DNA of 64,000 nt, taken from IMG/VR virus record IMGVR_UViG_3300048014_000353, positions 74,551-138,550 of that record. One strand, 5' to 3'. Positions 1,729 through 64,000 of the stretch are shown piece by piece; the stretch's first letter is position 1; each line of letters begins with the position of its first letter. This stretch comes from a virus. The notes below the pieces were generated by a model. That model saw only the letters and a list, made by a program, of their open reading frames with translations, ran no database searches and had not been told where the DNA came from. The position numbers were made by a program, and so were the translations under genes.

Positions 1729-4293
1729 GTGCCCGCCGTGACGACGAAACCCATCCTGCTCGACCTCGCGCCGAGCGACGTGCACACGCCGTCGTCCATG
1801 GCGACGGTGAGCGCCGCCAAGCCGGGTCTCCTGGCCAAAGCCGCGCTCGCCGTCGTCCACGACGACGGCGGTCGCATCCTCACCGTCGCCCGCCCCGAGC
1901 CGCCTCACGAGATGGCCCTTCCGGGCGGGATGATCGAGGACGGCGAGACCGAGGAAACCGCCGCCGCCCGCGAGCTGACCGAGGAAACCGGCATCAAGGC
2001 CGATGTCCTCGAGCACATCCTCGACACCCGGAGCCCCGTCGACGGCCGCGTCGTCTCGATCTTCCGCGTCACGCGGTGGTCGGGCGAGCCGTCCGCCGCC
2101 GAGGGCAACCCGGTCCAGTGGATGAAGCCGATCGACCTTGTGGCCCAGGCCACCCACTTCCGCCCGACCTTGAGGGAACTCATGCCGCACATCCTCCCCG
2201 AGGGCGAGATGGCCGAGCGCGCGAACCTCATCGACGCCGCCAAGCGCAACGCCCTGGCCGAGTCGAAGTTCGCGCTCCCCGCCCAGCGCAAGTACCCGAT
2301 CGACACGGCCGCCCGCACGCGCAACGCCGCCGCGCGTCTTGAGCAGCAAAGGAAGGCCGGCAAGATCTCCGACGCCGACTACAAGACCGCGCGCGTTCGT
2401 ATCGCCGCCGCCGCGAAGTCGTTCGGCATCGACAGCGAATTCAACGCGCGCGCCGGCTCGCCGCCGGCCGCCGCCGCCAAGCGACCCGCAGGACGCGGGC
2501 GCGGAACCATTCACGTCCGGGCCGACCTGGCTCCCGGGGGAGCTCTCCACGTGCGCCATATGACGACGAGCGAGGACGGCGCGCAGGCCTTCGTCCAACT
2601 GAGTGACGGAAGCATCGGCCTCCGCGACATCCGCGCGATCAAGCAGGGCGACGAGGTCGATCCGGCCACCGCGGGCGTGAAGCTCATCGGCAAAGCCACC
2701 TGGAGCGACGGGACGCCCAAGACCCTCGTGTGGATTCAGGTGGCCGAGTGCGGCGCCTGGCGCGGTCACCCGGCCGGTCCGTTCGAGATGACGCCCAAGA
2801 CGTTCGCCGAGATCAAGGCCAACTTCGACCAGCGCGGTCTCCCGGTCCCCTTCGACTACGAGCACGCGAGCGAGCAGGACGCGACGAGTGGCAGCATCCC
2901 GATCTCGGGCGCGCCCGCGCCGGGCTGGGTCCACAAGCTCGACAACCGCGGCATCGGCGGGCTCTGGGGCCTGGTCGAGTGGCTCGACGCCGCGCGCAAC
3001 GCGATCAAGGAAGGGTCCTACGCCTTCCTGTCGCCTGCCATCCGCTTCGGGTGCAAGCACCCGGTGACGGGGCAGCCCATCGGCGCGCGGCTCACGTCGG
3101 TGGCGCTCACCAACCAGCCGTTCCTGACGTCGCTCGACGACCTTCGCGCGGCGAAGGACGACTCGGCGCGCGAAGCGCTGCTCGCGAAGTCGCCGCTCCT
3201 GTTGAAGGGCTTCGGTGAGAACGTCATCGCCGCCGGCGGCAGCGCGCTCCTCGACCGTATGGTCCATTCCCCGTCGGGGATCCTCCCCAAGATCAAGGCG
3301 GCGCTGAAGCTGCACCCGCTCGCGACGCTGGACGACGTGTCGGGGCATCTCGGCAAGCTCCGCGAGGCCTGCATGTCGGCCGACGCGGGCGGGTCGTACT
3401 GCGGCGAGCCGCTCAGCGACTACTTGGGGCCGCTCACCGACCTCGCGAACCCCGGCCTTGGGGCGACCTACACCAACGTCCTCGACGCGCTCGACGCGTT
3501 CGTGGACGCCGAGATCGAAAAGCACGTCTTCCAAGGCGTGCCCATGCCGGACCCGCCTTCTGCGGCGATGGACGACGACTTTGATGACGGCGGAGGAGAC
3601 CTCTCCGACCGCCCGGAGAAAACCATGTCCGACAAGACCGCCACGACCCTCAAGGACGCTCAGGACGAACTCGCCAAGGTCACCGCCGTCAAGGAGTCGG
3701 TCGAGGCCGAGCGTACGCAGCTCCTCGCCGACAAGCAGACCCTCGCGACGGAGAAGACCAACCTCCTGGCGGACAAGGTCAAGCTCGAAGGCGAGAACTC
3801 GACGCTCACCCTGCAGCTCCGCGACGCGACGCAGAAGGCGACCGAGGCGGGCGAAGCCCTTTCGACTGCGAACGCGTCGATCGCCGCCGCTTCCACTGCG
3901 CTCGTCCTGAAGGACAAGGAGACGCTCGCCGAGGGTGCCGCGCGCATCGTCGCCGACAACGTGCGCCTGGCGAAGGAAGTCGCCGACATCAAGGAGGCGG
4001 GGCTCGTCGCTGCCGTAGACGACGCCTTCGCGGCGTACAGCGAGAGCAAGAAGCTCCGCGCCGAGGACAAGCCCATGATGCTCCGCTCGGCCCGCGCCGA
4101 CCGCGAAGCGTTCGATGCGCTCTACCCGCCGGTCAGCGCCGCGCACCGTCACCTCCTCACGACCGTCGTGACCCCCGAGAAGCGCCCGGAAGTGGAGCAG
4201 GCGGAGGCAAGTGACCCGATCAAGGTCATGAGCGAAACCGGCTGCAATTACGCCGAGGCGCTCGCGCGTATCAACCGCAAGAAGCCCGAATGA
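1729..4293 (+). CDS. Nudix hydrolase + DUF6582-like domain + Mu gpI-like prohead protease + coiled-coil scaffold fusion
   Basis: Nudix box GGMIEDGETEETAAARELTEETG; FALPAQRKYPI motif; WIQV..G.W.GHPAGPF, FDYEH, APAPGW, VEW, Y..LSPA, L.SVALTN.PFL (Mu protease I family); heptad-rich C-terminus. Confidence 0.85.
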   Translation: MPAVTTKPILLDLAPSDVHTPSSMATVSAAKPGLLAKAALAVVHDDGGRILTVARPEPPHEMALPGGMIEDGETEETAAARELTEETGIKADVLEHILDTRSPVDGRVVSIFRVTRWSGEPSAAEGNPVQWMKPIDLVAQATHFRPTLRELMPHILPEGEMAERANLIDAAKRNALAESKFALPAQRKYPIDTAARTRNAAARLEQQRKAGKISDADYKTARVRIAAAAKSFGIDSEFNARAGSPPAAAAKRPAGRGRGTIHVRADLAPGGALHVRHMTTSEDGAQAFVQLSDGSIGLRDIRAIKQGDEVDPATAGVKLIGKATWSDGTPKTLVWIQVAECGAWRGHPAGPFEMTPKTFAEIKANFDQRGLPVPFDYEHASEQDATSGSIPISGAPAPGWVHKLDNRGIGGLWGLVEWLDAARNAIKEGSYAFLSPAIRFGCKHPVTGQPIGARLTSVALTNQPFLTSLDDLRAAKDDSAREALLAKSPLLLKGFGENVIAAGGSALLDRMVHSPSGILPKIKAALKLHPLATLDDVSGHLGKLREACMSADAGGSYCGEPLSDYLGPLTDLANPGLGATYTNVLDALDAFVDAEIEKHVFQGVPMPDPPSAAMDDDFDDGGGDLSDRPEKTMSDKTATTLKDAQDELAKVTAVKESVEAERTQLLADKQTLATEKTNLLADKVKLEGENSTLTLQLRDATQKATEAGEALSTANASIAAASTALVLKDKETLAEGAARIVADNVRLAKEVADIKEAGLVAAVDDAFAAYSESKKLRAEDKPMMLRSARADREAFDALYPPVSAAHRHLLTTVVTPEKRPEVEQAEASDPIKVMSETGCNYAEALARINRKKPE

Positions 4294-5351
4294 TCCTCGT
4301 CCGCGACATCCAAGGGAACCCCCTCTTCTATCTGGAGGGGGATGTCGCGCGCGACAGTAGCGGCAAGCCCGTGGCCGTCGCGGTCGACAAGGACGGTGAG
4401 TCCAGACGGCTCACGAAGCACGCCGCGCGCGTGATGACCGCCACGTCGCCGGAGAGCGTCCTCATGGACCTAGCCCCGGGCGACGTGGTGACGCCGTCAA
4501 CGCAGGACGTCTACGCTATGCCCTTCGGGGACTTCGTCGCCGACCAGGTTAGCCAGGTTCGCTACGTCAAGAACGATCGCGGCGTCTACTACGCCGAGAA
4601 CGTCGCCGATGCGACGAGCCTCGTCATGGCAGTGGCGGCTGCCGACGGGACGCCGAGCGAGATCAACCCGGGCTTTGGCTCCGGATCGTTCAAGACGACA
4701 GGCTACGCGCTTGCGACGCGGCTCTCGCGTTCGCTCGTCAACAACGCCGACTTCGACCTCAAGGCGATCGCGCTCCACCGGCTGATCATCGCGCTCCGGC
4801 TCGGGCGCGAATACCGGCTCGCGCAGCTCCTCACGACCGCCGCGAACTGGGCGACCAAGAACCAGATCACTGCGACCGCGAAGTGGAATGGCGGCATCAC
4901 CGCGAACCCGCTCGCGGACCTTTTCGCCGCGCTCGCCGCTTCCGCGCTCCCCGCCAGCATGGTGGTGATGCCGGAGCTCGCCGCGCAATACTTTTTCCAG
5001 AACGCCAACTCCACCGCCATGCGCGACTACGTGCAGTCGGGCGGTGAGATGCCCAAGGTCGTCTTCGCCCGCGCGAAGTTCACGAGCGCGGGCAACGCAG
5101 CGTACATCTGGGCGCCGACGCTCCCCGCGAACGTCGCGATGGTGCGCTCCACCGACCACTTGCCGACGACGACCACCTACCGGTGGCTCGGCGACGACAA
5201 GTGCAAGGACGGCGAGCGCGCCGAAGGGATGCTCGTGCGGCAATTCTGGAGCAACACCGATGATTCGTACTGGATCATCGCAGCTCACAACGATGCCGAG
5301 CTGATGATCGCACCCACGGTGGGAGCCATCATCACCGGCGCGATGGCGTAA
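4290..5351 (+). CDS. Capsid protein paralog 1 (major capsid E-like)
   Basis: ATGA overlap with protease; RLGREYRLAQLLTTAANW and AKWNGG..ANPLADL align with the 5993 ORF (RLEREYRVASLLTTSGNW, QWDGG..ADPL). Confidence 0.75.
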   Translation: MILVRDIQGNPLFYLEGDVARDSSGKPVAVAVDKDGESRRLTKHAARVMTATSPESVLMDLAPGDVVTPSTQDVYAMPFGDFVADQVSQVRYVKNDRGVYYAENVADATSLVMAVAAADGTPSEINPGFGSGSFKTTGYALATRLSRSLVNNADFDLKAIALHRLIIALRLGREYRLAQLLTTAANWATKNQITATAKWNGGITANPLADLFAALAASALPASMVVMPELAAQYFFQNANSTAMRDYVQSGGEMPKVVFARAKFTSAGNAAYIWAPTLPANVAMVRSTDHLPTTTTYRWLGDDKCKDGERAEGMLVRQFWSNTDDSYWIIAAHNDAELMIAPTVGAIITGAMA

Positions 5352-53270: not shown

Positions 53271-53354
53271 GGGGTGCGATGGCGGGTGGCTCCCGCAGGC
53301 CGGCTGTAACCCGGTCGCCAAGGCTAGTGGTTCGAATCCACCGACACCCCACCA
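53271..53354 (+). tRNA. tRNA-Tyr(GTA)
   Basis: GCCGG-CTGTAAC-CCGGT anticodon arm, long variable arm, encoded CCA. Confidence 0.85.
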
Positions 53355-53397
53355 GCAAAGAGGACCAGGTGAAACAGGGACCAAAGCACGAAAGCGA

Positions 53398-53469
53398 GGG
53401 ACGTTAGCACCAAGGTGGTGCGGCCGGCTTTTACCCGGCACGAGGCGTGTTCGATTCACGTGCGTCCCA
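53398..53469 (+). tRNA. tRNA-Lys(TTT)
   Basis: GCCGG-CTTTTAC-CCGGC; acceptor GGGACGT/GCGTCCC. Confidence 0.85.
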
Positions 53470-53479
53470 CGACTCCAAC

Positions 53480-53551
53480 GGGAGGTTGGCATCCAGGTGA
53501 CGCAGCGCTCTCTTACAGCGACAGAGCCGGGTTCGAGTCCCGGGCCTCCCA
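53480..53551 (+). tRNA. tRNA-Lys(CTT)
   Basis: CGCT-CTCTTAC-AGCG; canonical T arm. Confidence 0.8.
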
Positions 53552-53564
53552 CGAAGTGAAGTGC

Positions 53565-53635
53565 ACCGGTCTCGTCCAAAGGCAGGACAGCAGATTCTGG
53601 ATCTGAGAATTGGGGTTCGAGTCCCTAGACCGGTA
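53565..53635 (+). tRNA. tRNA-Gln(CTG)
   Basis: CAGA-TTCTGGA-TCTG; D stem GTCC/GGAC. Confidence 0.85.
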
Positions 53636-53782
53636 CTGCGGGCAACGACTCCACGTTGACAAGTTGACCCCCGTTCGTTGACAACCTGAACGACCCCCGA
53701 CGGCGCGCGCTCCCCCGAGTTCGCGCGGCAGTCCCGGTCGACGTTCATTCGGGCCGGTAGCCATCGTGGCGCGGCCCTTCAT

Positions 53783-53856
53783 TGCGACGAAGCTCAATGG
53801 CGAGCAGCAGACTGTTAGCCTGTCGGAACAGGGTTCGATTCCCTGCGTCGCAGCCA
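53783..53856 (+). tRNA. tRNA-Asn(GTT)
   Basis: Loop CTGTTAG; G73 + CCA. Confidence 0.85.
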
Positions 53857-53857
53857 T

Positions 53858-53929
53858 GCCGGTTGGGCCCGATGGTAGGGCACCCCTTTCGTAAAGGGGT
53901 CGCAACGTGTTCGATTCACGTAACCGGCT
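53858..53929 (+). tRNA. tRNA-Thr(CGT)
   Basis: CCCCT-TTCGTAA-AGGGG. Confidence 0.85.
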
Positions 53930-53985
53930 CTGGGAGTAGGCCGCTCGCGTGGGTGACTCCTCGCGTGCGCGCTGACGCCCGCCAT

Positions 53986-54058
53986 GCTCCCATCGACTTC
54001 TGGTGAGGTCGCGCGCCTCTCACGCGCGCCAGGCACGGTTCGAATCAGGCGGGGAGTG
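53986..54058 (+). tRNA. tRNA-Glu(CTC), T stem degenerate
   Basis: CGCGC-CTCTCAC-GCGCG; T stem poorly paired. Confidence 0.55.
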
Positions 54059-54064
54059 CAACGC

Positions 54065-54137
54065 GCCCGCATAGCGCATCTGGTGAGGCCACCCGCCCTT
54101 CAAGCGGGCCAGACGAGTTCGATCCTCGTTGCGGGTA
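54065..54137 (+). tRNA. tRNA-Glu(TTC), C33
   Basis: CCCGC-CCTTCAA-GCGGG. Confidence 0.8.
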
Positions 54138-54144
54138 CTATTTT

Positions 54145-54219
54145 GCCTGCTGAGCTAGTGCGGTCATTCAGCGCTCGTTTGAAGAACGAGAGAACCCCGT
54201 CCGACTCGGGGAGCAGGCA
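54145..54219 (+). tRNA. tRNA-Phe(GAA), C55
   Basis: CTCGT-TTGAAGA-ACGAG; T loop TCCGACT. Confidence 0.8.
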
Positions 54220-54223
54220 CTAT

Positions 54224-54295
54224 CGGAGTGGTGGGCGATGGACGCCCGCTTGGTTCGGGACCAAGACCCCGCAGGTTCGATTCCTGTCGCTCCGA
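54224..54295 (+). tRNA. tRNA-Pro(CGG)
   Basis: CTTGG-TTCGGGA-CCAAG; C1-G72, A73. Confidence 0.85.
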
Positions 54296-54300
54296 CTCAT

Positions 54301-54373
54301 GGTGCTCGAAGCCATCTGGTGATGGTGATCGGCTGTGAACCGATCCAGGCGGGTTCGATCCCCGTCGGGCACC
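54301..54373 (+). tRNA. tRNA-His(GTG)
   Basis: ATCGG-CTGTGAA-CCGAT; G-1:C73. Confidence 0.85.
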
Positions 54374-54396
54374 CTACTCCTTTCGAGGAGACGAAT

Positions 54397-54467
54397 GCTT
54401 CGTGACGCGACAGGGTCGCGGCTCGGTTGTCTCCCGAGTGAGACCGGTTCGAGTCCGGTACGAAGCG
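54397..54467 (+). tRNA. tRNA-Asp(GTC)
   Basis: CTCGG-TTGTCTC-CCGAG; G73. Confidence 0.8.
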
Positions 54468-54498
54468 CTGGCTGGCGAGCGGGTCTCGCAAGCTTCTT

Positions 54499-54566
54499 AG
54501 GTCTGAGCGTGGGACGCGACGTGGTCTCCAAAACCACGAAAGAAGGTTCGAGTCCTTCCAGATCTG
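54499..54566 (+). tRNA. tRNA-Trp(CCA), short D arm
   Basis: GTGGT-CTCCAAA-ACCAC; G73. Confidence 0.75.
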
Positions 54567-54631
54567 CCGGGCTCTCGCGGCGCTCCGTGGGACTCGTCTC
54601 TAGGTTGACACGCCTATGGGCCCATCACTTC

Positions 54632-54702
54632 GGGCTGTTCGTCCAGCGGGAGGACACCGCGTCGGCAATGCGGGAACGCCGGTTCGAATCCGGCACGGTC
54701 CA
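54632..54702 (+). tRNA. tRNA-Ala(GGC), C33
   Basis: CCGCG-TCGGCAA-TGCGG; G3-U70. Confidence 0.85.
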
Positions 54703-54711
54703 CGATTCTAC

Positions 54712-54780
54712 GGGCTTGTCTGAGAGGTCAGGTCTCTCGTTCGCATCGAGCGATACGGGGTGCGACTCCCCGCAGGTCCA
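54712..54780 (+). tRNA. tRNA-Ala(CGC), G55
   Basis: CTCG-TTCGCAT-CGAG; G3-U70; T loop TGCGACT. Confidence 0.75.
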
Positions 54781-54784
54781 CCTT

Positions 54785-54855
54785 GGGGGTGTAGCTCAGC
54801 GGGAGAGCACTCGGTTTGCACCCGAGGGACGAGAGTTCGATTCTCTCCACTTCCA
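54785..54855 (+). tRNA. tRNA-Ala(TGC)
   Basis: CTCGG-TTTGCAC-CCGAG; G3-U70. Confidence 0.9.
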
Positions 54856-54933
54856 CACGGTCATCGAGGAGACCGTTAGCCTACCACGCAAGTGGTCACC
54901 CGTAGCACGGGTTTGGTAAGGGGCCCTCGCCAT

Positions 54934-55004
54934 GCCGCGTCTCCTAGTGGGCGACATCCCTCGGTACGGGAAGTCGGACGGTGCGATTCCGTCACGCGGC
55001 TCCA
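54934..55004 (+). tRNA. tRNA-Thr(GGT), C33, G55
   Basis: TCCC-TCGGTAC-GGGA; encoded CCA. Confidence 0.75.
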
Positions 55005-55005
55005 C

Positions 55006-55073
55006 GCCGGCGGCTGTGGAGCAGAGAGGGATTTGTAGCTCATCTCGAACCGGTCCGACTCCGGTGGCCGGCT
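55006..55073 (+). tRNA. Degenerate tRNA-Thr(TGT)
   Basis: Acceptor and T arm (ACCGG-TCCGACT-CCGGT) present; anticodon stem mismatched, D arm reduced. Confidence 0.4.
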
Positions 55074-55082
55074 CTGATTCTT

Positions 55083-55151
55083 GCGGGTGAGCCCAAGGTG
55101 GGACGTTCGCCTTCCAAGCGAAACGACCGAGTTCGAATCTCGGCATCCGCT
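55083..55151 (+). tRNA. tRNA-Gly(TCC)
   Basis: TTCGC-CTTCCAA-GCGAA; U73. Confidence 0.85.
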
Positions 55152-55358
55152 CTACTCGATGGCGTGCCGCGCCGAGTGCGCCAGTTTCAGTCGTTCGAGT
55201 TGATCGTCGCCGACGGGGTTCCCGCTGGATAGGCCGTTCGACATGAGCGGCAGCGGCTCTTTGCAGACACCGCAAGCCGTTGGTGCGCGGCGGAGGATGC
55301 CGATCGTCTTGATCTCTTCACCGCGAGCGCAGCCATCGCACACGAGCGTCCATCTCAT
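55152..55358 (-). CDS. Small zinc-ribbon protein antisense within the tRNA array
   Basis: MRWTLVCDGC...TACGVC; two CxxC motifs. Confidence 0.55.
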   Translation of the reverse strand: MRWTLVCDGCARGEEIKTIGILRRAPTACGVCKEPLPLMSNGLSSGNPVGDDQLERLKLAHSARHAIE

Positions 55359-55375
55359 CGTCGAAACGGTACCAT

Positions 55376-55449
55376 GCGGGTGCAGCTCGAAGGTCGAGCA
55401 GATCGTCGCCAACGATCAGGCGCGGGTTCAATTCCAGCCATCCGCTCCA
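55376..55449 (+). tRNA. tRNA-Gly(GCC), C33
   Basis: GATCG-TCGCCAA-CGATC; U73 + CCA. Confidence 0.8.
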
Positions 55450-55450
55450 C

Positions 55451-55522
55451 GTCGTGGACTGCGAGCGCAGATCGCCGGCTGCAACCCGGCGCGCGAGGGC
55501 GCGACTCCCTCCCACGACTCCA
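55451..55522 (+). tRNA. tRNA-Cys(GCA), C54/G55
   Basis: GCCGG-CTGCAAC-CCGGC; U73 + CCA; T loop CGCGACT. Confidence 0.75.
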
Positions 55523-55523
55523 T

Positions 55524-55557
55524 ATCGAGATCCCGATGCCCTCATCGAGATCCCGAT
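55524..55557. repeat. Tandem 14-bp direct repeat ATCGAGATCCCGAT, each an ATCG-N6-CGAT palindrome
   Basis: Exact copies at 55524-55537 and 55544-55557. Confidence 0.8.
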
Positions 55558-55561
55558 AGAC

Positions 55562-55636
55562 GCGCTCGTCCTGGCGGATCCAGGCTCTCGCCTTCTAAGC
55601 GAGTTCGCGACGGTCCGACTCCGTCCGGGCGCTCCA
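55562..55636 (+). tRNA. tRNA-Arg(TCT), C55
   Basis: CTCGC-CTTCTAA-GCGAG; encoded CCA. Confidence 0.8.
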
Positions 55637-55801
55637 TCCGAGGACCTTCGCTGGCAGCGTGCGTGAGCCCAAAGGAGCGTGACACGGCCGCTCACACGTA
55701 CGCCGGGCTGTCCAAAGAGTCGGGACACGCGGTGCCTCCCCACGGGCACCGCCCCCGTGAGTAGGCGCGGCCGGGCGAAGGGCCGAACGCCGAAGTCAAT
55801 T

Positions 55802-55872
55802 CTCCTCGTCCGGGCGGACCCCGGGCGCTCCCTCCGAAGGAGCAATCCACCGTTCGACTCGGTGCGAGGAGA
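55802..55872 (+). tRNA. tRNA-Arg(CCG)
   Basis: GCTCC-CTCCGAA-GGAGC. Confidence 0.8.
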
Positions 55873-55891
55873 CCGCCGCGCGAGCGGCCAT

Positions 55892-55962
55892 GCCCCCGTC
55901 CTGGCGGATCCAGGCAGCGGTCTACGAAACCGCTCGTCGGAGTTCGACTCTCCGCGGGGGCT
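55892..55962 (+). tRNA. tRNA-Arg(ACG)
   Basis: GCGGT-CTACGAA-ACCGC. Confidence 0.85.
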
Positions 55963-55963
55963 C

Positions 55964-56036
55964 TGTAGGGAGGGTGGTCTTAGTCCCAACCGAGGCTCAT
56001 AACCTCGGCTTCGCCGGTGCAACACGGCCCCTGCAA
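55964..56036 (+). tRNA. tRNA-Met(CAT), T arm atypical
   Basis: CGAGG-CTCATAA-CCTCG; T loop TGCAACA. Confidence 0.65.
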
Positions 56037-56037
56037 C

Positions 56038-56105
56038 CGCAGCACGCCTCGGAGGCGCGCGAGCCCCATAAGCTCGCCGACCCGGTTCGACTCCGGGTGC
56101 TGCGA
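56038..56105 (+). tRNA. tRNA(CAT), Ile2 or Met, C33, short D arm
   Basis: CGAGC-CCCATAA-GCTCG. Confidence 0.7.
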
Positions 56106-56111
56106 CGACGT

Positions 56112-56187
56112 GCCGGCCTCGCGCTCTAGTGAGCACCGCCGCCTTACAAGCGGATGAAGGCGAGTGCGATCCTCGCGGCCGGTACCA
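56112..56187 (+). tRNA. tRNA-Val(TAC), G55
   Basis: CCGC-CTTACAA-GCGG; A73 + CCA. Confidence 0.8.
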
Positions 56188-56194
56188 AATCTTT

Positions 56195-56267
56195 GCGGAG
56201 CTCGTCCTCTGGCGAGGGCACCACGTCGACAACGTGGTTCAGGCGAGTTCGATCCTCGCGCTCCGCA
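56195..56267 (+). tRNA. tRNA-Val(GAC), C33
   Basis: CCACG-TCGACAA-CGTGG. Confidence 0.85.
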
Positions 56268-56279
56268 CCGCTTTTTCAC

Positions 56280-56351
56280 CCGGCCGGACTGGCGGGTCGC
56301 CTTGCGCTCTCTGATACGGAGCGCGGCCGCGTTCGAGTCGCGGCGGCCGGA
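56280..56351 (+). tRNA. tRNA-Ile(GAT)
   Basis: GCTCT-CTGATAC-GGAGC. Confidence 0.8.
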
Positions 56352-56423
56352 CCCATTCACGCCAAGAAACGACTCCACGGAGACGATCCCCATGCTGCTC
56401 AGGCGAAGGAAACGGTGACGACC

Positions 56424-56966
56424 ATGCTGGCCAACCCCTGTCTCGTGCTCACGCCGCGAATGATCCCCCACGAAGCCGTCTCGCTCGAGCGCGCGATCTG
56501 CCTGGCGTACCTGCGCAAGGTGGACGTGCTCGAAGTCTACGAGGCCGTCGTGCATTCGCCGTCGCTCGAGATGCAGGTGCCAGCCGTCGTCCGCCTGACG
56601 AGCAAGGCCATGCCGCATGAGATGCGGGATGTGAAGTTCTCCCGCCCGCGCGTCTACCAGCGCGACGGGCACCGGTGCCAGTACTGCGGCGTGAAGAAGC
56701 GCGCGTCCGAGCTCAACTACGACCACGTGATCCCTCGTTCCAAGGGCGGCCCGACGAACTGGACGAACATCGTGACGAGCTGCCTCGTCTGCAACGGGCG
56801 TAAGGGCGGCCGGACACCGAAAGAGGCGGGGATGCGTCTCCTTCGAAAGCCACGCGCGCCGGAGAGTCTCCCGCTCGTCGGCCTGGTCGCGCTCCCGAGC
56901 GACGTTCCCGAGCTCTGGCTTCCGTACCTCGAAGGTCATTCATCCCGCGTGGCGATGACCGCGTGA
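56424..56966 (+). CDS. McrA-like HNH endonuclease inside the tRNA array
   Basis: AAGGA RBS; RD...CQYCG...DHVIPRSKGG...W.NIV..C..CN..KG.RTP.EAGM.L. Confidence 0.9.
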   Translation: MLANPCLVLTPRMIPHEAVSLERAICLAYLRKVDVLEVYEAVVHSPSLEMQVPAVVRLTSKAMPHEMRDVKFSRPRVYQRDGHRCQYCGVKKRASELNYDHVIPRSKGGPTNWTNIVTSCLVCNGRKGGRTPKEAGMRLLRKPRAPESLPLVGLVALPSDVPELWLPYLEGHSSRVAMTA

Positions 56967-57081
56967 AGCTTGCCTGCCGCTACCCGCCGGAAGAGCGCGC
57001 GTGGACCATGCCGCGCGGCCACCGCAGGTCAATCAGCCATTCCCGGCGCATGGCGCGGAACACCGGGGCTCTCATCTCTTT

Positions 57082-57163
57082 GGAGGGTGAAGTGGCATGG
57101 GGCCACGCTGGCTTCGAAACCCAGGGACCTTCACGGGTAGGCGTTCGATTCGTCCACCCTCCG
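57082..57163 (+). tRNA. tRNA-Ser(CGA)
   Basis: Loop TTCGAAA, long variable arm, G73. Confidence 0.8.
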
Positions 57164-57261
57164 CTACCTTCGTCGTGCCGCAGCATGGCCGGGATGAGAC
57201 GCCCCGGCGGGACAAACCGCGTTCGAACGAACGATGTGAGGTCCGCACGACGCGGAGACTT

Positions 57262-57344
57262 GGAAGACGAACCCGCCAGGGGCGGGGACCGATTGCTAAT
57301 CGGCACGTGGGGCAACCCATCCTGTTCGAGTCAGGCGTCTTCCG
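57262..57344 (+). tRNA. tRNA-Ser(GCT)
   Basis: CCGA-TTGCTAA-TCGG; variable arm GTGGG-GCAA-CCCAT. Confidence 0.85.
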
Positions 57345-57345
57345 C

Positions 57346-57414
57346 TCCGGTACCCCGTGGACGGGAACGTGGCCTTTGAAGCCGCGGACGAGAGTTCGAA
57401 CCTCTCTACCGGTA
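57346..57414 (+). tRNA. tRNA-Gln(TTG)
   Basis: GTGGC-CTTTGAA-GCCGC. Confidence 0.75.
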
Positions 57415-57415
57415 C

Positions 57416-57499
57416 CCGATCGTGGTGGAACAGCAGACACGGCGCGCTGAGAACGCGTGCCCCCCTAGGGGCGTGAGGGTGCGATTCCCTCCGATCGGA
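57416..57499 (+). tRNA. tRNA-Leu(GAG), G55
   Basis: GCGCG-CTGAGAA-CGCGT; long variable arm. Confidence 0.8.
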
Positions 57500-57509
57500 C
57501 GACTCTCTT

Positions 57510-57594
57510 GCTCGGGTGTCGGAAAAGGTAGACGAGCGACGTTCAGACCGTCGTGCCCCTCGTGGGCGTGCTGGTTCGAGTCCAGCCCTGAGCA
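57510..57594 (+). tRNA. tRNA-Leu(CAG)
   Basis: CGACG-TTCAGAC-CGTCG; long variable arm. Confidence 0.9.
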
Positions 57595-57609
57595 CTTCTC
57601 ACTTCTCTG

Positions 57610-57694
57610 GCCGCGGTGGTTGGAACGGCAGACACGCGCAGTTCAAACCTGCGTGCCTTCGGGCGTGCGGGTTCAAGTCCCGCCCGCGGCACCA
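57610..57694 (+). tRNA. tRNA-Leu(CAA)
   Basis: CGCAG-TTCAAAC-CTGCG; encoded CCA. Confidence 0.9.
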
Positions 57695-57970: not shown

Positions 57971-58180
57971 GGGGGCCGGGTCGCTCGTCGGCAAAGCGTT
58001 CGCAGTGGCCTCGGCCTCCGCCTCCTCGCGCGCCTCGAGCTCGAAGTGCGCGATCGCCGGGCCGAGGAGACCGCGCGCCGCCTCCGCCGTGTCCGTGACG
58101 CCGCCGGTGACCATCTGCGCGTAGAGGTGTCGGAGCTGGCCGAGATGGAAGGCCGTCGAGTGGCGATGGCCGTCGATCAT
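57965..58180 (-). CDS. Hypothetical protein downstream of hicB
   Basis: Overlap-coupled to hicB. Confidence 0.45.
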   Translation of the reverse strand: MIDGHRHSTAFHLGQLRHLYAQMVTGGVTDTAEAARGLLGPAIAHFELEAREEAEAEATANALPTSDPAPK

Positions 58181-58767
58181 TTCCGGGTATCTAGTGAGGT
58201 CAAGGCAAAGGAGTCGGTCTTGGTATCCCGTCCGCCCTCCGACTTACGATTGCCGTCACGGATGACTTTGCCTGCTCGCGTGACATTCATGTCGAGCATG
58301 TCCAAGTCCGTCATTCGCGTCGGCGCCAACGCCTTTGCGGGCCGCGGCAACGGGCGAGTTCGTCCGGACTTTTTCGGCTTTGCGTCGAGAATCATGCCCG
58401 ACTGGAGGTCCGTCAAAAAGGCACGTACCGTCGTGCGGCTGAGGCCCTCGGCGATCCACGTCACGAAGAGTTGATTCAGCGAGACCCCTTCCGCCGACGA
58501 GACCGCCGACGCCCGCGCGTGCAGCGTCTTGGGCATGCGGAGCGCAAACTTGCCGGAGTAGTCCACCGCATCGATGTCGGACTCGGGCACGGGACGCCCG
58601 TGGGCCTTGAGCGATTCGACCATGAGCTTGCCGGCGATCTCGATCTCTTTGACCGCCTCCTCCATCGTGTCGCCGTGCGCCGCGAGCGTGTCGAACGCAG
58701 GCGCACGCGCGATGAAGACTTCGTCCAGGGCACTCCAGCTGACGAATACGCGATAGGGGAACATCAC
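58177..58767 (-). CDS. hicB: HicB-family antitoxin with RHH domain and C-terminal extension
   Basis: Y...V.WS..D..FIA..P.......HGDT.EEA..E; YSGKF.LRMP..LH......A..EGVSLNQ. Confidence 0.88.
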   Translation of the reverse strand: MMFPYRVFVSWSALDEVFIARAPAFDTLAAHGDTMEEAVKEIEIAGKLMVESLKAHGRPVPESDIDAVDYSGKFALRMPKTLHARASAVSSAEGVSLNQLFVTWIAEGLSRTTVRAFLTDLQSGMILDAKPKKSGRTRPLPRPAKALAPTRMTDLDMLDMNVTRAGKVIRDGNRKSEGGRDTKTDSFALTSLDTRK

Positions 58768-59015
58768 TTCACCTCCAGATTGTGGTCGTCCACGATGTCG
58801 AGAACCTGCACGACCTGGTACCTCTTGGCCATTCCGTTGTTGCCCGACTGCACGTTCACCGTGGGCGCCGTGTCGTGCACGTAGATCGTGTGTGAGGTCC
58901 CATTTTTCCGATCGAACCTGTAGCCGAGGGCTTCGAGAAGCCGCACTAGTTCGGAGAAGCGCACGCCGGCCGGGTTGTTCCGGATCGCGTCGAGCAGCTT
59001 TCTCTTCTTGGACAT
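58764..59015 (-). CDS. hicA: HicA-family RNase toxin
   Basis: NNP..VRF.EL..LLE..G.......GSH..Y...........AK.YQV.QV. Confidence 0.88.
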   Translation of the reverse strand: MSKKRKLLDAIRNNPAGVRFSELVRLLEALGYRFDRKNGTSHTIYVHDTAPTVNVQSGNNGMAKRYQVVQVLDIVDDHNLEVK

Positions 59016-59726: not shown

Positions 59727-60047
59727 ATGACGTCTGGCAAGCCGAAGCCGAAGTGCGACCGTTGCGGCGGCACGCTCGTGAAAGGTGAGGTTTACAACGG
59801 CGGCGGTGGCCGTCGCCTCTGCTGCGCCTGTGGGACGAACGAGAACAGCCCGCTCGTGAGGTATGTCAAAAGCCGTCTCGCGTACCGCGCGTTCGCTCTC
59901 TGGTGGGATGAGGTGGAGCCCTGTCCGACGGGGGCGGCTTCAGCCAAGGAAGCGTGGACGATGCTCCCGCCCTCCCATCAGCGCGCGTGGAGGAGCGTCG
60001 TGCGCTTGGTATGGAAGGAATGTCGCGCTTCCCACCCGGAGGCCTGA
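59727..60047 (+). CDS. Zinc-finger protein
   Basis: CDRCG...CCACG. Confidence 0.5.
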   Translation: MTSGKPKPKCDRCGGTLVKGEVYNGGGGRRLCCACGTNENSPLVRYVKSRLAYRAFALWWDEVEPCPTGAASAKEAWTMLPPSHQRAWRSVVRLVWKECRASHPEA

Positions 60048-60055
60048 GGACCGCC

Positions 60056-60763
60056 ATGCTGTACATCCTCCACACCTCCGACACGCACGGGTGGGACATC
60101 ACGCAGATCCCGCTCGACGCCCAAAACAGCGAGCACGGCGTACGCATCGACGTCGTCGTGCACTCGGGCGACTTCCAGCCGACCAAGGGCCGCCGCGTGG
60201 GCGAGCGCATCCGGCCCGTCGCCGAGGTCCGCTACCAGGATCGGTGGATGCGAAAGAACGCGCCGAAGATCGCGGCGTGGCTCGACGGACGCCCGTTCGT
60301 CTTCGTGCCGGGCAACCACGACTTCTACAACCCGACCGCCGACCTCGCGCTCGCCGGCGCGAACGTCGTGTGGCTTCGGAACGGAAGTGCATCGGTCGCG
60401 GGGATCCGTTTCTCCGGCTACCGATTCATCCCGTACATCGAAGGGGAATGGTGCGGCGAGCTCCCGGAGAGCGACATCGCCAAGCACGCCAAGGAGATCG
60501 AGGACTGCGACGTCCTCGTCACCCACGCGCCTCCGCACGGCGTGCTCGACCGGGACAGCGGTCGGCACTTCGGGAGCTCGGCGCTCGCGAACGAGTACCT
60601 CTACAACCGCGAGGGACGACGTCTGCCGAAGGTGTGGCTCTGCGGCCACGTCCATCCGCACGGGGGCGAGCAGGCGCAACTCACTTTCGGGGGGATCCTG
60701 GTCGTGAACTCGGCCAAGACATGGCAGGTGATCGGGATCAAGCCTTCGGAAGTGGCACCTTGA
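60056..60763 (+). CDS. Metallophosphoesterase
   Basis: SDTHG, HSGDF, PGNHD, THAPP, CGHVH. Confidence 0.88.
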   Translation: MLYILHTSDTHGWDITQIPLDAQNSEHGVRIDVVVHSGDFQPTKGRRVGERIRPVAEVRYQDRWMRKNAPKIAAWLDGRPFVFVPGNHDFYNPTADLALAGANVVWLRNGSASVAGIRFSGYRFIPYIEGEWCGELPESDIAKHAKEIEDCDVLVTHAPPHGVLDRDSGRHFGSSALANEYLYNREGRRLPKVWLCGHVHPHGGEQAQLTFGGILVVNSAKTWQVIGIKPSEVAP

Positions 60764-60819
60764 TCATATTCTTGCGCCGTCGATGTTCACGAGCGAGGTC
60801 TCGAACTCGTAGGCGGCGG

Positions 60820-61059
60820 TCACGAGCTCTTTTCTTTCTGCGAGGTCAATGCTTTGTCCTCGGCATCTTCAGAGATCGTCATCCGTACATGGTTGACGAT
60901 CTCCCCCACGGACACCGCGAAGAGAAGAAGGGAACTGAAGAACGATAGGCAGCCGAGGAGCGTGTCTTTCTGAAAGTCATCTTTCAGGTTGGAGAACTTG
61001 CTGACTGCGCAGAGCAGAAGCACCCCGCAGACGAAGTCTCGTCGGATGGCTTGCTTCAC
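60820..61059 (-). CDS. Two-TM membrane mini-protein
   Basis: GTGA-coupled start; two hydrophobic segments. Confidence 0.5.
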   Translation of the reverse strand: MKQAIRRDFVCGVLLLCAVSKFSNLKDDFQKDTLLGCLSFFSSLLLFAVSVGEIVNHVRMTISEDAEDKALTSQKEKSS

Positions 61060-61148
61060 TTGCGCACTCCTCCGCCGCTCGGCGGCGTCTCTTTCCTGAT
61101 CGGGGTCAGCTTCTTGCGGCGGTCCTGTTCGTCGAACAGCTCCGTCAT
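61056..61148 (-). CDS. 30-aa peptide ending LTPIRKETPPSGGGVRK (possibly a relic)
   Basis: Carries the repeat in the LTP frame; stop overlaps next start. Confidence 0.35.
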   Translation of the reverse strand: MTELFDEQDRRKKLTPIRKETPPSGGGVRK

Positions 61149-61190
61149 TCGGTCGCCTATCCCACGGAGGCCCGTGGCTCGGTGAGGTCT

Positions 61191-61376
61191 TCACTCATCG
61201 CCATTCCTTTCGGTCGTGTCGGACCGCTCCGGGGTCAGCTTCCCGATGATCTTCAGACACACACGACAACTCACTTTTGAGCGGTCCGTGGTCAGGTCGA
61301 GGATGGCGCCGTCGTGCATCCTGCACACGTTCATACCGTCCTTCTTTCTGGTCCAATGGGTCACGTATCTGCGCAT
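61191..61376 (-). CDS. Cys/His mini-protein ending LTPERSDTTERNGDE
   Basis: THW...VC...VSC.VC; repeat near 3' end. Confidence 0.6.
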   Translation of the reverse strand: MRRYVTHWTRKKDGMNVCRMHDGAILDLTTDRSKVSCRVCLKIIGKLTPERSDTTERNGDE

Positions 61377-61385
61377 CGTGGTCGC

Positions 61386-61712
61386 TCACGTTCGTTTCGG
61401 GGTCAGCGCCTCTGGAGTGCGAGAGCACTCGCACTCGGGACCGGTTGCGCCATCTCCGAACCCGAGGTCTATACGCGCAGTGCAACCGTGACCAGCGACG
61501 TGATCCGACCACGGATGCGCGCAACGTGGGCACTCGGTCGGTTTATCCTGGTCTTTAGGGGTCAGTTCCTCTTCCGGTGTTTTGACACCCGACAGGAAAG
61601 CTTCCACCGCCATCGCGGTACCGAGGATCCGATCCGGGTCTCGGCTCGCCTCTGCTGCGTGCATCTCCTTCGCGAGATCACGAATGCACGTCATGTACTG
61701 CTCTCGGTTCAT
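61386..61712 (-). CDS. Fused two-cassette protein (helical part + CPRCAH..DH...C Cys domain)
   Basis: Internal LTPKDQ and terminal LTPKRT. Confidence 0.6.
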   Translation of the reverse strand: MNREQYMTCIRDLAKEMHAAEASRDPDRILGTAMAVEAFLSGVKTPEEELTPKDQDKPTECPRCAHPWSDHVAGHGCTARIDLGFGDGATGPECECSRTPEALTPKRT

Positions 61713-61714
61713 AG

Positions 61715-62095
61715 TCACTCCGTCTCTTGGCGCTTCGGGGTCACCGTTTTCGTTCGCCAAACCACCCCGCATCCAAGGCACGTCCACGTACCCGGAGGAA
61801 GTCGCTTGGCTGCGTCGATGTCTCCGCCTCCGCACGTTGGGCATTTGTTCGATAGGACCGGCTCAAGGTGCTCGCCGGCCTCGATGGCATCGGCGAGATA
61901 GTCGATCCCTTTTTCAACATCGAAGGTCCGCATCCACCCAACGATCGCGGAACGCTCCGTACACACGTCGCAGTGGCCAAGCGATGCGAGCATACCGTGC
62001 GAGCACCGAGGCAACTCGGCGCAGGCGGCGCACGGTGGCGGACCACTTCCGTCGATGGTTGTTGCCGTGTTGATACAGGTGTGCGGCTTCGACAT
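61715..62095 (-). CDS. Cys-rich zinc-binding protein ending VTPKRQETE
   Basis: Multiple CxxC; GAGGA RBS. Confidence 0.65.
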   Translation of the reverse strand: MSKPHTCINTATTIDGSGPPPCAACAELPRCSHGMLASLGHCDVCTERSAIVGWMRTFDVEKGIDYLADAIEAGEHLEPVLSNKCPTCGGGDIDAAKRLPPGTWTCLGCGVVWRTKTVTPKRQETE

Positions 62096-62096
62096 T

Positions 62097-62273
62097 CTAC
62101 TTCCTCTCAGGCGTCCGCTGGTCTTTAGGGGTCATCACATTTCGATCACGCAGGCGGTTGATGCCGCAGATTACGCGGTGGGTCTCCGTGCACTTCGCGC
62201 ATGTCCTGTACTTGCAGCGCGGACACGTCGTGCGCCGTGGCACCCACTGATCGCATCGGTCGCAGAGTGTCAT
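62097..62273 (-). CDS. 58-aa zinc-finger mini-protein ending MTPKDQRTPERK
   Basis: MTLCDRC...CPRC...CAKC..H..IC (read by hand, absent from ORF track). Confidence 0.65.
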   Translation of the reverse strand: MTLCDRCDQWVPRRTTCPRCKYRTCAKCTETHRVICGINRLRDRNVMTPKDQRTPERK

Positions 62274-62434
62274 TTCGCCCTAGCTAGGCAGTCCTCTTCG
62301 GACTCGTCATGGTCGTGATCGCGCTCGTAAGCGATGCACTCGCAGTCGTCCTCCGTGCACGCCGTGGACCCAGGGTGCGCGGCGTCGTGCCCGTGCTCCT
62401 CCGGTGCGTGTCCGCATGTGCAAGCCTCATTCAT
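62270..62434 (-). CDS. 54-aa Cys/His acidic mini-protein
   Basis: MNEACTCGHAPEEH...C..DDCECIAY (read by hand); overlap-coupled. Confidence 0.65.
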   Translation of the reverse strand: MNEACTCGHAPEEHGHDAAHPGSTACTEDDCECIAYERDHDHDESEEDCLARAK

Positions 62435-62729
62435 CTCCGCCGCTTTCCGGTGCCGAGGTTCGTTTCGGGGTCACGAAACCAGGGACGTTGAGCACCCGAA
62501 TCCAGTGTCCCTCTCGCACTTGGTCCGAGTGACACGCGCAGTTGACGCTAGGGTCACATCCGTAGCCTTCTTCGGGAGTACCGAGGCGATGGCAGGCGCG
62601 ATACGCACCCTTCCACTCTCGCATCTCGTACAGGTGTCCCGTCTGCACCCGAAGCCACACTTCGCCTTCTTGAGGCAGAGCGACCTCGGTGTAGTGGGAT
62701 GCGTTCGTCTCTACGAGGATGCGAGCCAT
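62427..62729 (-). CDS. Mini-protein ending VTPKRTSAPESGGDE
   Basis: AGGAG RBS, start MARILVET. Confidence 0.6.
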   Translation of the reverse strand: MARILVETNASHYTEVALPQEGEVWLRVQTGHLYEMREWKGAYRACHRLGTPEEGYGCDPSVNCACHSDQVREGHWIRVLNVPGFVTPKRTSAPESGGDE

Positions 62730-62733
62730 GTCG

Positions 62734-62928
62734 TCACTTCTCCTGTCCGTCTTGGCGCCGCTTCGGGGTCGGCTTATTGGCGCGCTCGTCCTCGCGAATG
62801 TGTCGCTCCCAAGCCTCAAGTTGTCGCGCTACCCAACTGAAGCACACCCGATGTAGCTCCGTGCCCTTCTTAGGAGCACCGTCGATCCCATCGAGCAGGG
62901 CCTGAGCGAACCGCGTAGCTTCCAGCAT
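62734..62928 (-). CDS. Helical mini-protein ending PTPKRRQDGQEK
   Basis: AAGGAG RBS. Confidence 0.6.
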   Translation of the reverse strand: MLEATRFAQALLDGIDGAPKKGTELHRVCFSWVARQLEAWERHIREDERANKPTPKRRQDGQEK

Positions 62929-62963
62929 ATCTCACTCCTTCCCAGGCGCGTCTTGGCGCTTAG

Positions 62964-64000
62964 GAGCCCGTTCGAAATTATCGATCCTTTGATGGAAATA
63001 GGGGGCCTGCGCGGGTGGTTGCTCGTGCAGGATGCTCGCGGTGGACGCAGTTCGGGCGAAGTACGCGCGGCTGCGCGGCGTGATGGACGAGCGCGTGACG
63101 CGTCTGTGGGCTGCGGCGGAGGCTGAGGCGATCGGATACGGCGGAATCGCGGCGGTGGTCGAGGCGACGGGGATCAGCAAGTCGAGGGTGCGCGCTGGTC
63201 TGCGGGAGCTGTTGGAATATGCGACGGATCCACCGACGACTGCACCGCGTGCACAACGAGTTCGGCGCCCTGGGGCTGGGCGACCTCTGCTTGAGAAGCT
63301 CGACCCGACGTTGGTGCCGGATCTGGAATCGCTCGTCGAGCCGGTGACGCGAGGCGATCCGGAGTCGCCACTTCGTTGGACGTGCAAGAGCAAGGACAAG
63401 CTGGCCGCCGAGCTGCAGGCGATGGGGCACAAGGTGAGCGCGACCAAAGTAGGCCTGCTGCTCCACGACTTGGAATACAGCCTCCAGGTTGTGCGCAAGA
63501 CGCGCGAGGGCGGCCAGTCACCGGACCGCAACGCCCAGTTCGAGCACATCAACCGCACGGCGAAAGCGTTCATGAAACGCGGCCAGCCCGTGGTCTCGGT
63601 CGATACGAAAAAGAAGGAATTAGTGGGCGATTTCAAGAACGCAGGGCACGAGTGGCACCCGAAGGGGTCGCCGGAACCTGTCCGCGTTCACGACTTCATC
63701 GATCGCGATCTTGGCAAGGTGATCCCCTATGGCATCTACGACACCACTCGCAACGAGGCGTGGGTCAGCGTAGGGGTCGATCACGACACGGCGGAGTTCG
63801 CGGTCGCTACTCTCGAGCGCTGGTGGCGTGAGATGGGCAAGAAGGCCTACCCGGATGCCACCGAGCTGCTGGTCACGGCGGATGGCGGCGGCAGCAACGC
63901 CCCGCGCTCACGACTGTGGCGCGTCGAATTGCAGCGTTTCGCGGACGCAACAGGCCTCCGCGTAAGCGTCTGTCACTTTCCGCCGGGGACCAGTAAGTGG
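62964..64000 (+). mobile_element. ISAzo13-family insertion sequence, left part
   Basis: Left end GAGCCCGTTCGAAATT after TAG; transposase downstream. Confidence 0.8.
63032..64000 (+). CDS. ISAzo13-family DDE transposase (3'-truncated by window)
   Basis: DER..RLWAA.EA...GYGG; RGDPESPL.WT.KS; DRNAQF..IN; SVDTKKKELVG.FKN.G; VGVDHDT.EFAV; ADGGGSN; HFPPGTSKW. Confidence 0.92.
   Translation, partial: MLAVDAVRAKYARLRGVMDERVTRLWAAAEAEAIGYGGIAAVVEATGISKSRVRAGLRELLEYATDPPTTAPRAQRVRRPGAGRPLLEKLDPTLVPDLESLVEPVTRGDPESPLRWTCKSKDKLAAELQAMGHKVSATKVGLLLHDLEYSLQVVRKTREGGQSPDRNAQFEHINRTAKAFMKRGQPVVSVDTKKKELVGDFKNAGHEWHPKGSPEPVRVHDFIDRDLGKVIPYGIYDTTRNEAWVSVGVDHDTAEFAVATLERWWREMGKKAYPDATELLVTADGGGSNAPRSRLWRVELQRFADATGLRVSVCHFPPGTSKW

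Follow-up and report, generated by a model that had tools for sequence, protein, structure and literature searches.

What joins a row of small genes that share a short word at their edges and are otherwise unrelated? This question is raised by a 64,000-nucleotide stretch of viral DNA (positions 74,551 to 138,550 of the IMG/VR virus record IMGVR_UViG_3300048014_000353), which we refer to as the window and which makes up the final 64 kb of that single 138,550-nt record. Towards the end of the window, the core word TGACCCCGAA separates nine tiny unrelated genes in a row. These genes, here g1 to g9, are tightly packed open reading frames (ORFs) on the minus strand that run from 62928 down to 60820 and encode proteins of 64, 100, 54, 58, 126, 108, 61, 30, and 79 amino acids, respectively. 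This word was found not only at the boundaries of genes and of domains but also where relatives of the array differ from it.

A short repeat in the tails of the array genes

Eight co-oriented copies of YGACCCC(G/T)A were located on the minus strand between 61098 and 62771, with the first base of the YGACCCC word at 62771, 62473, 62134, 61743, 61564, 61405, 61237, and 61108. When the window was scanned with the pattern TGACCCCKAAR, allowing at most one mismatch, nine matches were obtained against 2.76 expected, and none of 100 shuffled sequences reached nine. Seven of these nine matches were on the minus strand within 61227-62771. Across the whole record, the strict core was present five times in the array and once elsewhere. 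Numbered in the direction of the genes, the minus-strand copies are copy 1 (CGACCCCGAAG, 62761-62771), copy 2 (TGACCCCGAAA, 62463-62473), copy 3 (TGACCCCTAAA, 62124-62134), copy 4 (TGACCCCGAAG, 61733-61743), copy 5 (TGACCCCTAAA, 61554-61564), copy 6 (TGACCCCGAAA, 61395-61405), copy 7 (TGACCCCGGAG, 61227-61237), and copy 8 (TGACCCCGATC, 61098-61108). Three of them continue beyond the core as AAGCG(GCG)CCAAGA, and inside sub-families the identity between copies grows to 12-17 bases. Specifically, copies 5 and 3 form an exact 17-nt pair (61548-61564 and 62118-62134), and copies 6 and 2 an exact 16-nt pair (61390-61405 and 62458-62473). Copies of one sub-type do not cluster in the array but are mixed with the others (C, C, A, B, C, B, A).

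Each of the eight copies lies in the tail of an ORF, and all are translated in the same frame (xTG-ACC-CCN, giving Leu, Val, Met, or Pro followed by Thr-Pro). The core itself carries no Shine-Dalgarno sequence. The distance from the core to the next start was 42, 39, 39, 31, 29 (or 68), 89, and 49 nt for the seven copies from 62771 to 61108, excluding the copy internal to g6. The idea that every leader closes all three reading frames before the next start was also considered and failed, as the third frame often enters the downstream gene.

These results agree with most of what a preliminary description of this DNA had claimed about the repeat, namely minus-strand copies with a TGACCCC core, exact pairs of 16-17 bp, a shared x-Thr-Pro reading frame near the 3' ends of small genes, and a spacing of about 30-50 nt to the next start, which was mostly 29-49 nt with a full range of 29-89 nt. 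A truncated copy reported at 62952 was likewise recovered, as a leader remnant at 62949-62963 that was cut by an insertion sequence (IS). A degenerate copy reported at 60841 fared less well: a look-alike is indeed present in the tail of g9 (TGACCTCGCAG, 60838-60848, minus strand), but it is weak (7/10 match) and may be indistinguishable from chance. The same description had proposed that the rest of the genome be searched for further copies and for a recombinase. The first of these searches yielded a single additional exact core in 138.5 kb; the second is taken up below.

Exchange of units between relatives

Evidence at the level of DNA came from a 1782-nt JGI metagenome contig (L029), whose sole match to the virus record is its segment 647-939, equivalent to positions 62758-62466 of the window, that is, the g2 unit. 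From GACCCCGAA to the next GTGACCCCG the two sequences were approximately 91% identical, while outside this block their similarity was no better than random, and the genes upstream and downstream of the g2 homologue differed from those in the window. The homology starts at copy 1 of the repeat, the 5' edge of the g2 unit, and stops at copy 2, its 3' edge. At the next junction of L029 the CGACCCCAAG word appears again, 28 nt before a start. The leader stays with g2 in both contexts. On the L029 contig the upstream gene reads the core and the leader in another frame (RDPEAPRR...), and its stop overlaps the start of g2.

Protein tails pointed to two further replacements. A variant of g7 on a 15.6-kb contig (P0030) was 98% identical to the window protein through ...KLTP, after which it reads RGREKP where the window reads ERSDTTERNGDE. 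A relative of g5 on a 1517-nt contig (P0018) shared 61% identity overall with g5 residues 1-79, including a near-identical stretch over the first 50 residues, and ended in LTPNRQEENEP. Where this relative ends, g5 continues with a zinc ribbon of 40 residues, and only then comes its own tail, VTPKRQETE. Between related T4-type phages, breakpoints of insertion, deletion, and replacement fall in the promoter-early stem-loop (PeSL) elements, and in this array the replacement breakpoints likewise fell in the repeat, at both ends for g2 by the DNA alignment and for g7 and g5 by protein comparison. The reading of the array as a set of cassettes is partly supported: these three cases speak for an exchange between relatives of units bounded by the repeat.

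Searches for additional arrays provided no further examples. Scans of genome and viral contigs for exact 17-mers and 18-mers returned nothing or lone chance matches, and a gapped pattern of two cores matched 46 loci among viral contigs, about the number expected by chance. Loci with multiple copies of this pattern were rejected as paralogues (L052), as PDPEA repeats within one ORF (L066), or as other tandem repeats. In the first of these, an IMG/VR contig with 70% G+C content (GC), the four adjacent small genes at 540-1005 that begin with ATGACCCC(T/G)(A/G)ACG... (MTPNAD) belong to one paralogous family whose 5' end is conserved, and they have no relation to the array. Alignments of g2, g5, and the N-terminal part of g6 to genome and viral contigs gave no match. 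The IMG/VR relatives of g5 and g7 (L016-L028, L077, and L078) were distant and carried no core array. Related public contigs of 2132 and 3022 nt encode two further proteins (P0014 and P0003, respectively). An aconitase-like protein of 421 amino acids (P0031) that fell into the cluster of g7 variants was discarded as a clustering artefact.

Fusion of units within the array

The repeat also lies inside a gene. Copy 5 is found within g6 (108 amino acids, 61386-61712, minus strand), with neither a stop nor a start after it, and joins an N-terminal module (residues 1-50) to a Cys/His C-terminal module (residues 58-102). An exhaustive HMMER search identified residues 1-50 as a family of stand-alone proteins of 55-68 amino acids and found residues 58-102 after other N-termini in two proteins (P0002 and P0021). 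Since the two halves are found apart elsewhere, g6 is a fusion joined at its internal core. A second case involves g4 and g5: a protein of 181 amino acids on a public contig of 2335 nt (P0006) corresponds exactly to g4 plus g5, given a 13-nt deletion between two GAAG words. Such a deletion leaves neither stop nor spacer nor start between the two genes, resulting in their in-frame fusion. Both observations bear on the preliminary description, which had inferred a fusion of two modules without a stop at 61548 and, more generally, that units are fused in frame: the halves of g6 stand apart elsewhere, and the fused g4-g5 protein provides another instance of in-frame joining.

Conservation of the core and rival explanations

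The frame shared by the eight window copies, their place near the C-terminus, and the retention of Thr-Pro in relatives raise the question of whether a peptide is conserved. Under such an explanation the array proteins would carry a C-terminal tag, (L/V/M)-T-P-K/R followed by a charged tail, serving as a site of phosphorylation or of proteolysis, as a degron, or as a packaging signal. Codon choice speaks against it, for synonymous positions are fixed against the usage of the phage. Threonine is encoded by ACC in 8/8 cores compared with 40% in phage structural genes, and leucine by CTG in 4/4 cores compared with 22%. Lysine is encoded by AAA in 4/6 cores compared with 7% in structural genes, a figure that weighs less because AAA already accounts for 41% of lysine codons in the array genes. 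Meanwhile, the residue before threonine varies (Leu, Val, Met, or Pro) but its codon always ends in TG or CG. Because the core codons are invariant against phage codon usage, the conserved entity is DNA rather than a peptide tag. Moreover, the residues after Thr-Pro vary freely in relatives (Lys, Glu, Arg, Asn, and Ile), g3 has no such tail, and the upstream gene of L029 reads the same DNA as RDPEAPRR. Taken together, the alternative frame of L029, the codon invariance, and the variable residue before threonine indicate that the Thr-Pro-Lys tails are the product of translating the leader of the next unit, and we regard a peptide tag as very unlikely. Common descent, in which the tails would be remnants of a tandemly duplicated ancestral mini-gene whose bodies diverged without any shuffling, could draw on the CxC(G/A)H...H...CxC pattern shared by g3 and the C-terminal module of g6 and on the zinc-ribbon-like character of several units. 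However, most of the bodies are unrelated (helical, zinc-ribbon, or membrane proteins) and yet their cores of 10-17 nt are identical, the repeat sub-types are interleaved along the array, and neighbours are replaced in relatives. Common descent is the least probable of the explanations that we considered.

Once the core is accepted as a DNA word, it could act in cis on expression from within each leader (e.g., in RNA processing, as a ribosome standby site or enhancer, or as the site of a regulator), with recombination as a side effect, as for the promoter and terminator of PeSL elements. The conservation at the nucleotide level, the strictly single orientation, the distance of 29-49 nt from core to next start in most units, and the fact that core and leader remain with the downstream gene in L029 are all compatible with such a signal. 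On the other hand, no sigma-70-like promoter sites (zero) and no minus-strand terminator-like sites were detected in 60600-63050, RNA folds of the nine junctions revealed no consistent or shared hairpin, and no Rfam family matched in the array. In addition, no start follows the copy inside g6, and hardly any copy of the word exists in the remaining 136 kb; it is thus not a general signal of this phage. We consider a role in expression possible but doubtful as the main explanation. A further alternative, and part of the preliminary description, is an integron-like system whose dedicated site-specific recombinase recognizes the core and moves units in and out as circles. Its appeal lies in breakpoints that are precise to within the core of about 10 nt and in a tyrosine recombinase encoded by the record; that enzyme, the only PF00589 match in 138.5 kb (record positions 4355-4918), is separated from the array by about 130 kb and resembles an ordinary phage integrase. 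The genome-wide search proposed earlier therefore produced a recombinase, but one distant from the array, and there is none within about 10 kb of it. No IntI-type recombinase was present beside the array in the available DNA, which stops in the IS; the neighbours are a metallophosphoesterase, hicAB, and the IS. Directly behind its last array gene, L029 has an ORF (1493-1780) that by eye resembles the beginning of a tyrosine recombinase, which would favour such a system; this ORF is truncated where the contig ends and had no Pfam match. No attC-type site was apparent either, for the core has no inverted-repeat partner and the nine junction folds contained no consistent hairpin. No joint inside the array was listed in the assembled contigs of public runs, a comparison limited to assembled contigs. 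With no hairpin or inverted-repeat partner and no nearby recombinase, the defining features of an integron are lacking, and we judge an integron-like system highly improbable.

We favour an account in which the cores, as the sole homology between unrelated units, probably serve as sites of recombination during co-infection or with prophages, so that whole units are moved. The array would then be a hyperplastic region of accessory genes built of gene-sized or domain-sized units, each consisting, in order, of a short direct repeat (the core), a leader of 20-40 nt with a ribosome site, and an ORF. The core and leader are translated as a Thr-Pro-Lys or charged tail because the previous ORF is still open at the core. 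The cores are the only sequence common to units that are otherwise unrelated, and exchange within them through short homology or microhomology, carried out by phage or host functions, could swap, insert, or delete units when relatives co-infect a cell. Neighbouring units would be welded into fusion proteins by small leader deletions that take out the stop and the start. As for the PeSL elements of T4-type phages, the likeliest process would be recombination between short stretches of common sequence. Observed directly are the repeat, its placement, its conservation as DNA, the exchange breakpoints at the core, and the fusions; the use of the core as homology for recombination is inferred. The preliminary description had spoken of an "integron-like or microhomology-driven" system; its microhomology part fits best, while its integron-like part found no support in the form of an attC-type hairpin or a nearby recombinase.

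Several points weigh against exchange at the cores as an explanation. A single comparison (L029) is available at the DNA level, the remaining breakpoints being deduced from protein tails, and the g4-g5 fusion, seen in a metagenome contig of low coverage, may have arisen in assembly. A core of 10 nt is short for homologous recombination, which would leave room for a dedicated enzyme or for a purely selective explanation, and no single-strand annealing protein was detected in searches for RecT and ERF in this 82%-complete record. The fairly regular spacing between core and start also fits a role in expression. Finally, the eight window copies are in one frame, and pure DNA shuffling needs no shared frame; core-to-core exchange between arrays would nevertheless keep it. 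We think it unlikely that a dedicated phage recombination system recognizes the core, moves gene- or domain-sized units in register, and builds in-frame fusions. If true, such a system would amount to a natural phage "exon-shuffling" device operating on a 10-nt coding word.

Genes of the array

The first gene, g1 (62734-62928, minus strand like all that follow), encodes an ORFan protein of 64 amino acids with the tail PTPKRRQDGQEK. It is followed by g2 (62427-62729), a Cys/His-rich ORFan of 100 amino acids ending in VTPKRTSAPESGGDE, and by g3 (62270-62434), whose product of 54 amino acids has the pattern CxCGH..H..CxC. The latter gene carries no repeat, and its stop overlaps the start of g4 (ATGA); g3 and g4 make up one unit. 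The g4 protein (62097-62273, 58 amino acids) is zinc-ribbon-like, with four cysteines and the tail MTPKDQRTPERK. Next comes g5 (61715-62095, 126 amino acids), composed of two modules, residues 1-79 and a zinc ribbon at 80-117, before its VTPKRQETE tail; residues 80-119 alone aligned with zinc-ribbon proteins in the structure rows of the Protein Atlas, which we treat as a lead only. Downstream of the fused g6, g7 (61191-61376) encodes 61 amino acids, or 48 from a better-placed ATG at 61337, and ends in LTPERSDTTERNGDE. Between g7 and g8 there is a possible micro-ORF of 13 codons, MSEDLTEPRASVG (61148-61237, minus strand), with a good ribosome site; its start overlaps the stop of g7 and lies at the usual distance from the core. 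The product of g8 (61056-61148) has 30 amino acids and the tail LTPIRKETPPSGGGVRK, and the stop of this gene overlaps the start of g9 (GTGA). The last gene of the array, g9 (60820-61059), encodes a protein of 79 amino acids with two hydrophobic segments.

The cargo of the array is mostly Cys/His-rich, which together with the two hydrophobic segments of g9 is in line with the Cys/His or membrane mini-proteins of the preliminary description. None of the array proteins had a Pfam or PHROG match above the cut-off, and in the Protein Atlas g2 and g5 retrieved just unnamed viral clusters and weak zinc-ribbon leads. The array genes (60820-62928) differ from the structural genes in base composition (62% versus 68% GC) and in the share of lysine codons that are AAA (41% versus 7%), a bias that would fit a foreign or fast-turnover origin of the units. 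The phage encodes a tRNA-Lys(UUU).

An insertion sequence at the upstream end

At its upstream end the array is broken by an ISAzo13-family IS (62964-64000, plus strand) that inserted in a copy of the repeat. Its transposase ORF (63032-64000; PF07592, E = 8.9e-105) is cut by the end of the record. What is left of the repeat copy, upstream of g1, is the leader part CTAAGCGCCAAGACG (62949-62963, minus strand), which matches the leaders behind the cores at 62771 and 61743; the core has been replaced by the end of the IS. Among contigs from other runs, some begin at 62959-62962 (IS sequence at high depth) and others track the array to 62963/62964 and then diverge from the window. A 7717-nt Logan contig, which encodes P0001, P0008, and P0017, crosses the IS site and continues for 3.5 kb beyond it. 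Because contigs of other runs continue past 62963/62964, the array reaches further in strains without the IS. In the four runs examined, the depth of the element itself exceeded that of the phage by a factor of 5-20. On one contig, position 64000 is followed by 62959, a junction that may reflect a tandem or circular form of the IS.

The phage and the surroundings of the array

The virus record is classed as linear in IMG/VR, with a completeness of 82% as estimated by CheckV, and the public runs that contain this stretch are moss and peat metagenomes. Genes on the plus strand of the window include the remnant of a Mu-type portal, a fusion of NUDIX, DUF6582, and Mu-like protease domains, a DNA-circulation-like protein, Baseplate_J, and a GH25 lysin. 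Judging from these genes and the source of the runs, the host of the array is a large uncultured phage of moss or peat with a Mu-like head. Cultured phages gave no match at the DNA level, and the best match of the capsid protein among them had only 22% identity. Likewise, no relatives of the capsid protein or of the metallophosphoesterase that flanks the array were found among the viral or genome contigs searched. The fusion mentioned above is a single ORF of 854 amino acids (1729-4290, plus strand) that combines NUDIX, DUF6582, and a Mu-like prophage protease/scaffold domain, an unusual fusion for a head-maturation protein.

A block of 29 co-oriented tRNA genes was detected by ARAGORN within 4.4 kb (53271-57694), between the lysis genes and hicAB; an earlier count had given about 35. 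After this block the record encodes an HNH nuclease, hicAB, and the metallophosphoesterase, followed by the array on the minus strand and, last, the transposase gene of the ISAzo13-family element. The hicA/hicB genes (58177-59015, minus strand) constitute a toxin-antitoxin pair in the phage record (HicA_toxin, E = 1.7e-07; HicB, E = 1.6e-08). The metallophosphoesterase gene (59954-60763, plus strand) is the one on which g9 converges. Across the last 4 kb of the window, GC drops from approximately 68% to 62%.

Comparison with known systems

In integrons, the adjacent IntI recombines attC sites, which are imperfect inverted repeats of 57-141 bp that take up their fold in single-stranded form. 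The array resembles integron cassettes in its co-oriented, mostly single-gene and promoterless units with one recombination-associated repeat at the edge, but it has neither the long inverted-repeat hairpin sites nor an adjacent IntI. Cluster K mycobacteriophages offer a second point of comparison. Their SAS/ESAS elements consist of the 13-bp sequence GGGATAGGAGCCC, which includes a Shine-Dalgarno sequence (AGGAG) and is located 3-7 bp upstream of the start, and are spread over half the genome (PMC3203893). In both cases a short asymmetric repeat stands in one orientation before many unrelated small genes in the non-structural part of a high-GC phage. The array word, in contrast, is mostly 29-49 nt (up to 89 nt) upstream of the start, has no ribosome site, and is confined to one array of 2 kb.

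The closest counterpart is found in the hyperplastic regions of T4-type phages, where PeSL cassettes flank small ORFan genes (PMC2839356, PMC4122927). A PeSL lies between genes and combines a strong sigma-70-like promoter with a terminator stem-loop; the shuffling mediated by these elements has been shown experimentally, and mini-circles were demonstrated by inverse PCR (PMC2839356, PMC4122927). The preliminary description had named no described system that matches the array, whereas PeSL elements match it in kind (PMC2839356, PMC4122927). In both, short repeats flank small ORFans, the repeat travels with the gene that it precedes, and relatives differ by the insertion, deletion, or replacement of units at the repeats. 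Unlike a PeSL, the array repeat is a word of 10-17 nt that contains neither promoter nor terminator nor hairpin. It is translated as part of the preceding ORF, and it also joins domain-sized modules into fusions. The phages differ as well: PeSL hosts are Tevenvirinae-like, with hyperplastic regions between blocks of core genes, whereas the head genes here are Mu-like (portal and protease) and are accompanied by Baseplate_J and a GH25 lysin.

These comparisons bear on the debate about phage mosaicism, in which exchange at short conserved linkers is set against random illegitimate joins sorted by selection. The array is a compact natural case with a visible linker of about 10 bases within coding sequence, and it illustrates a route for phages to weld small proteins into larger ones. 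On the one hand, the principle of shuffling mediated by linkers is already known from the PeSLs of T4-type phages. On the other hand, the form differs. The phage is high in GC and has a Mu-like head, and its linker, a word of 10-17 nt that is itself coding, precedes the next start by about 40 nt and connects not only genes but also domains.

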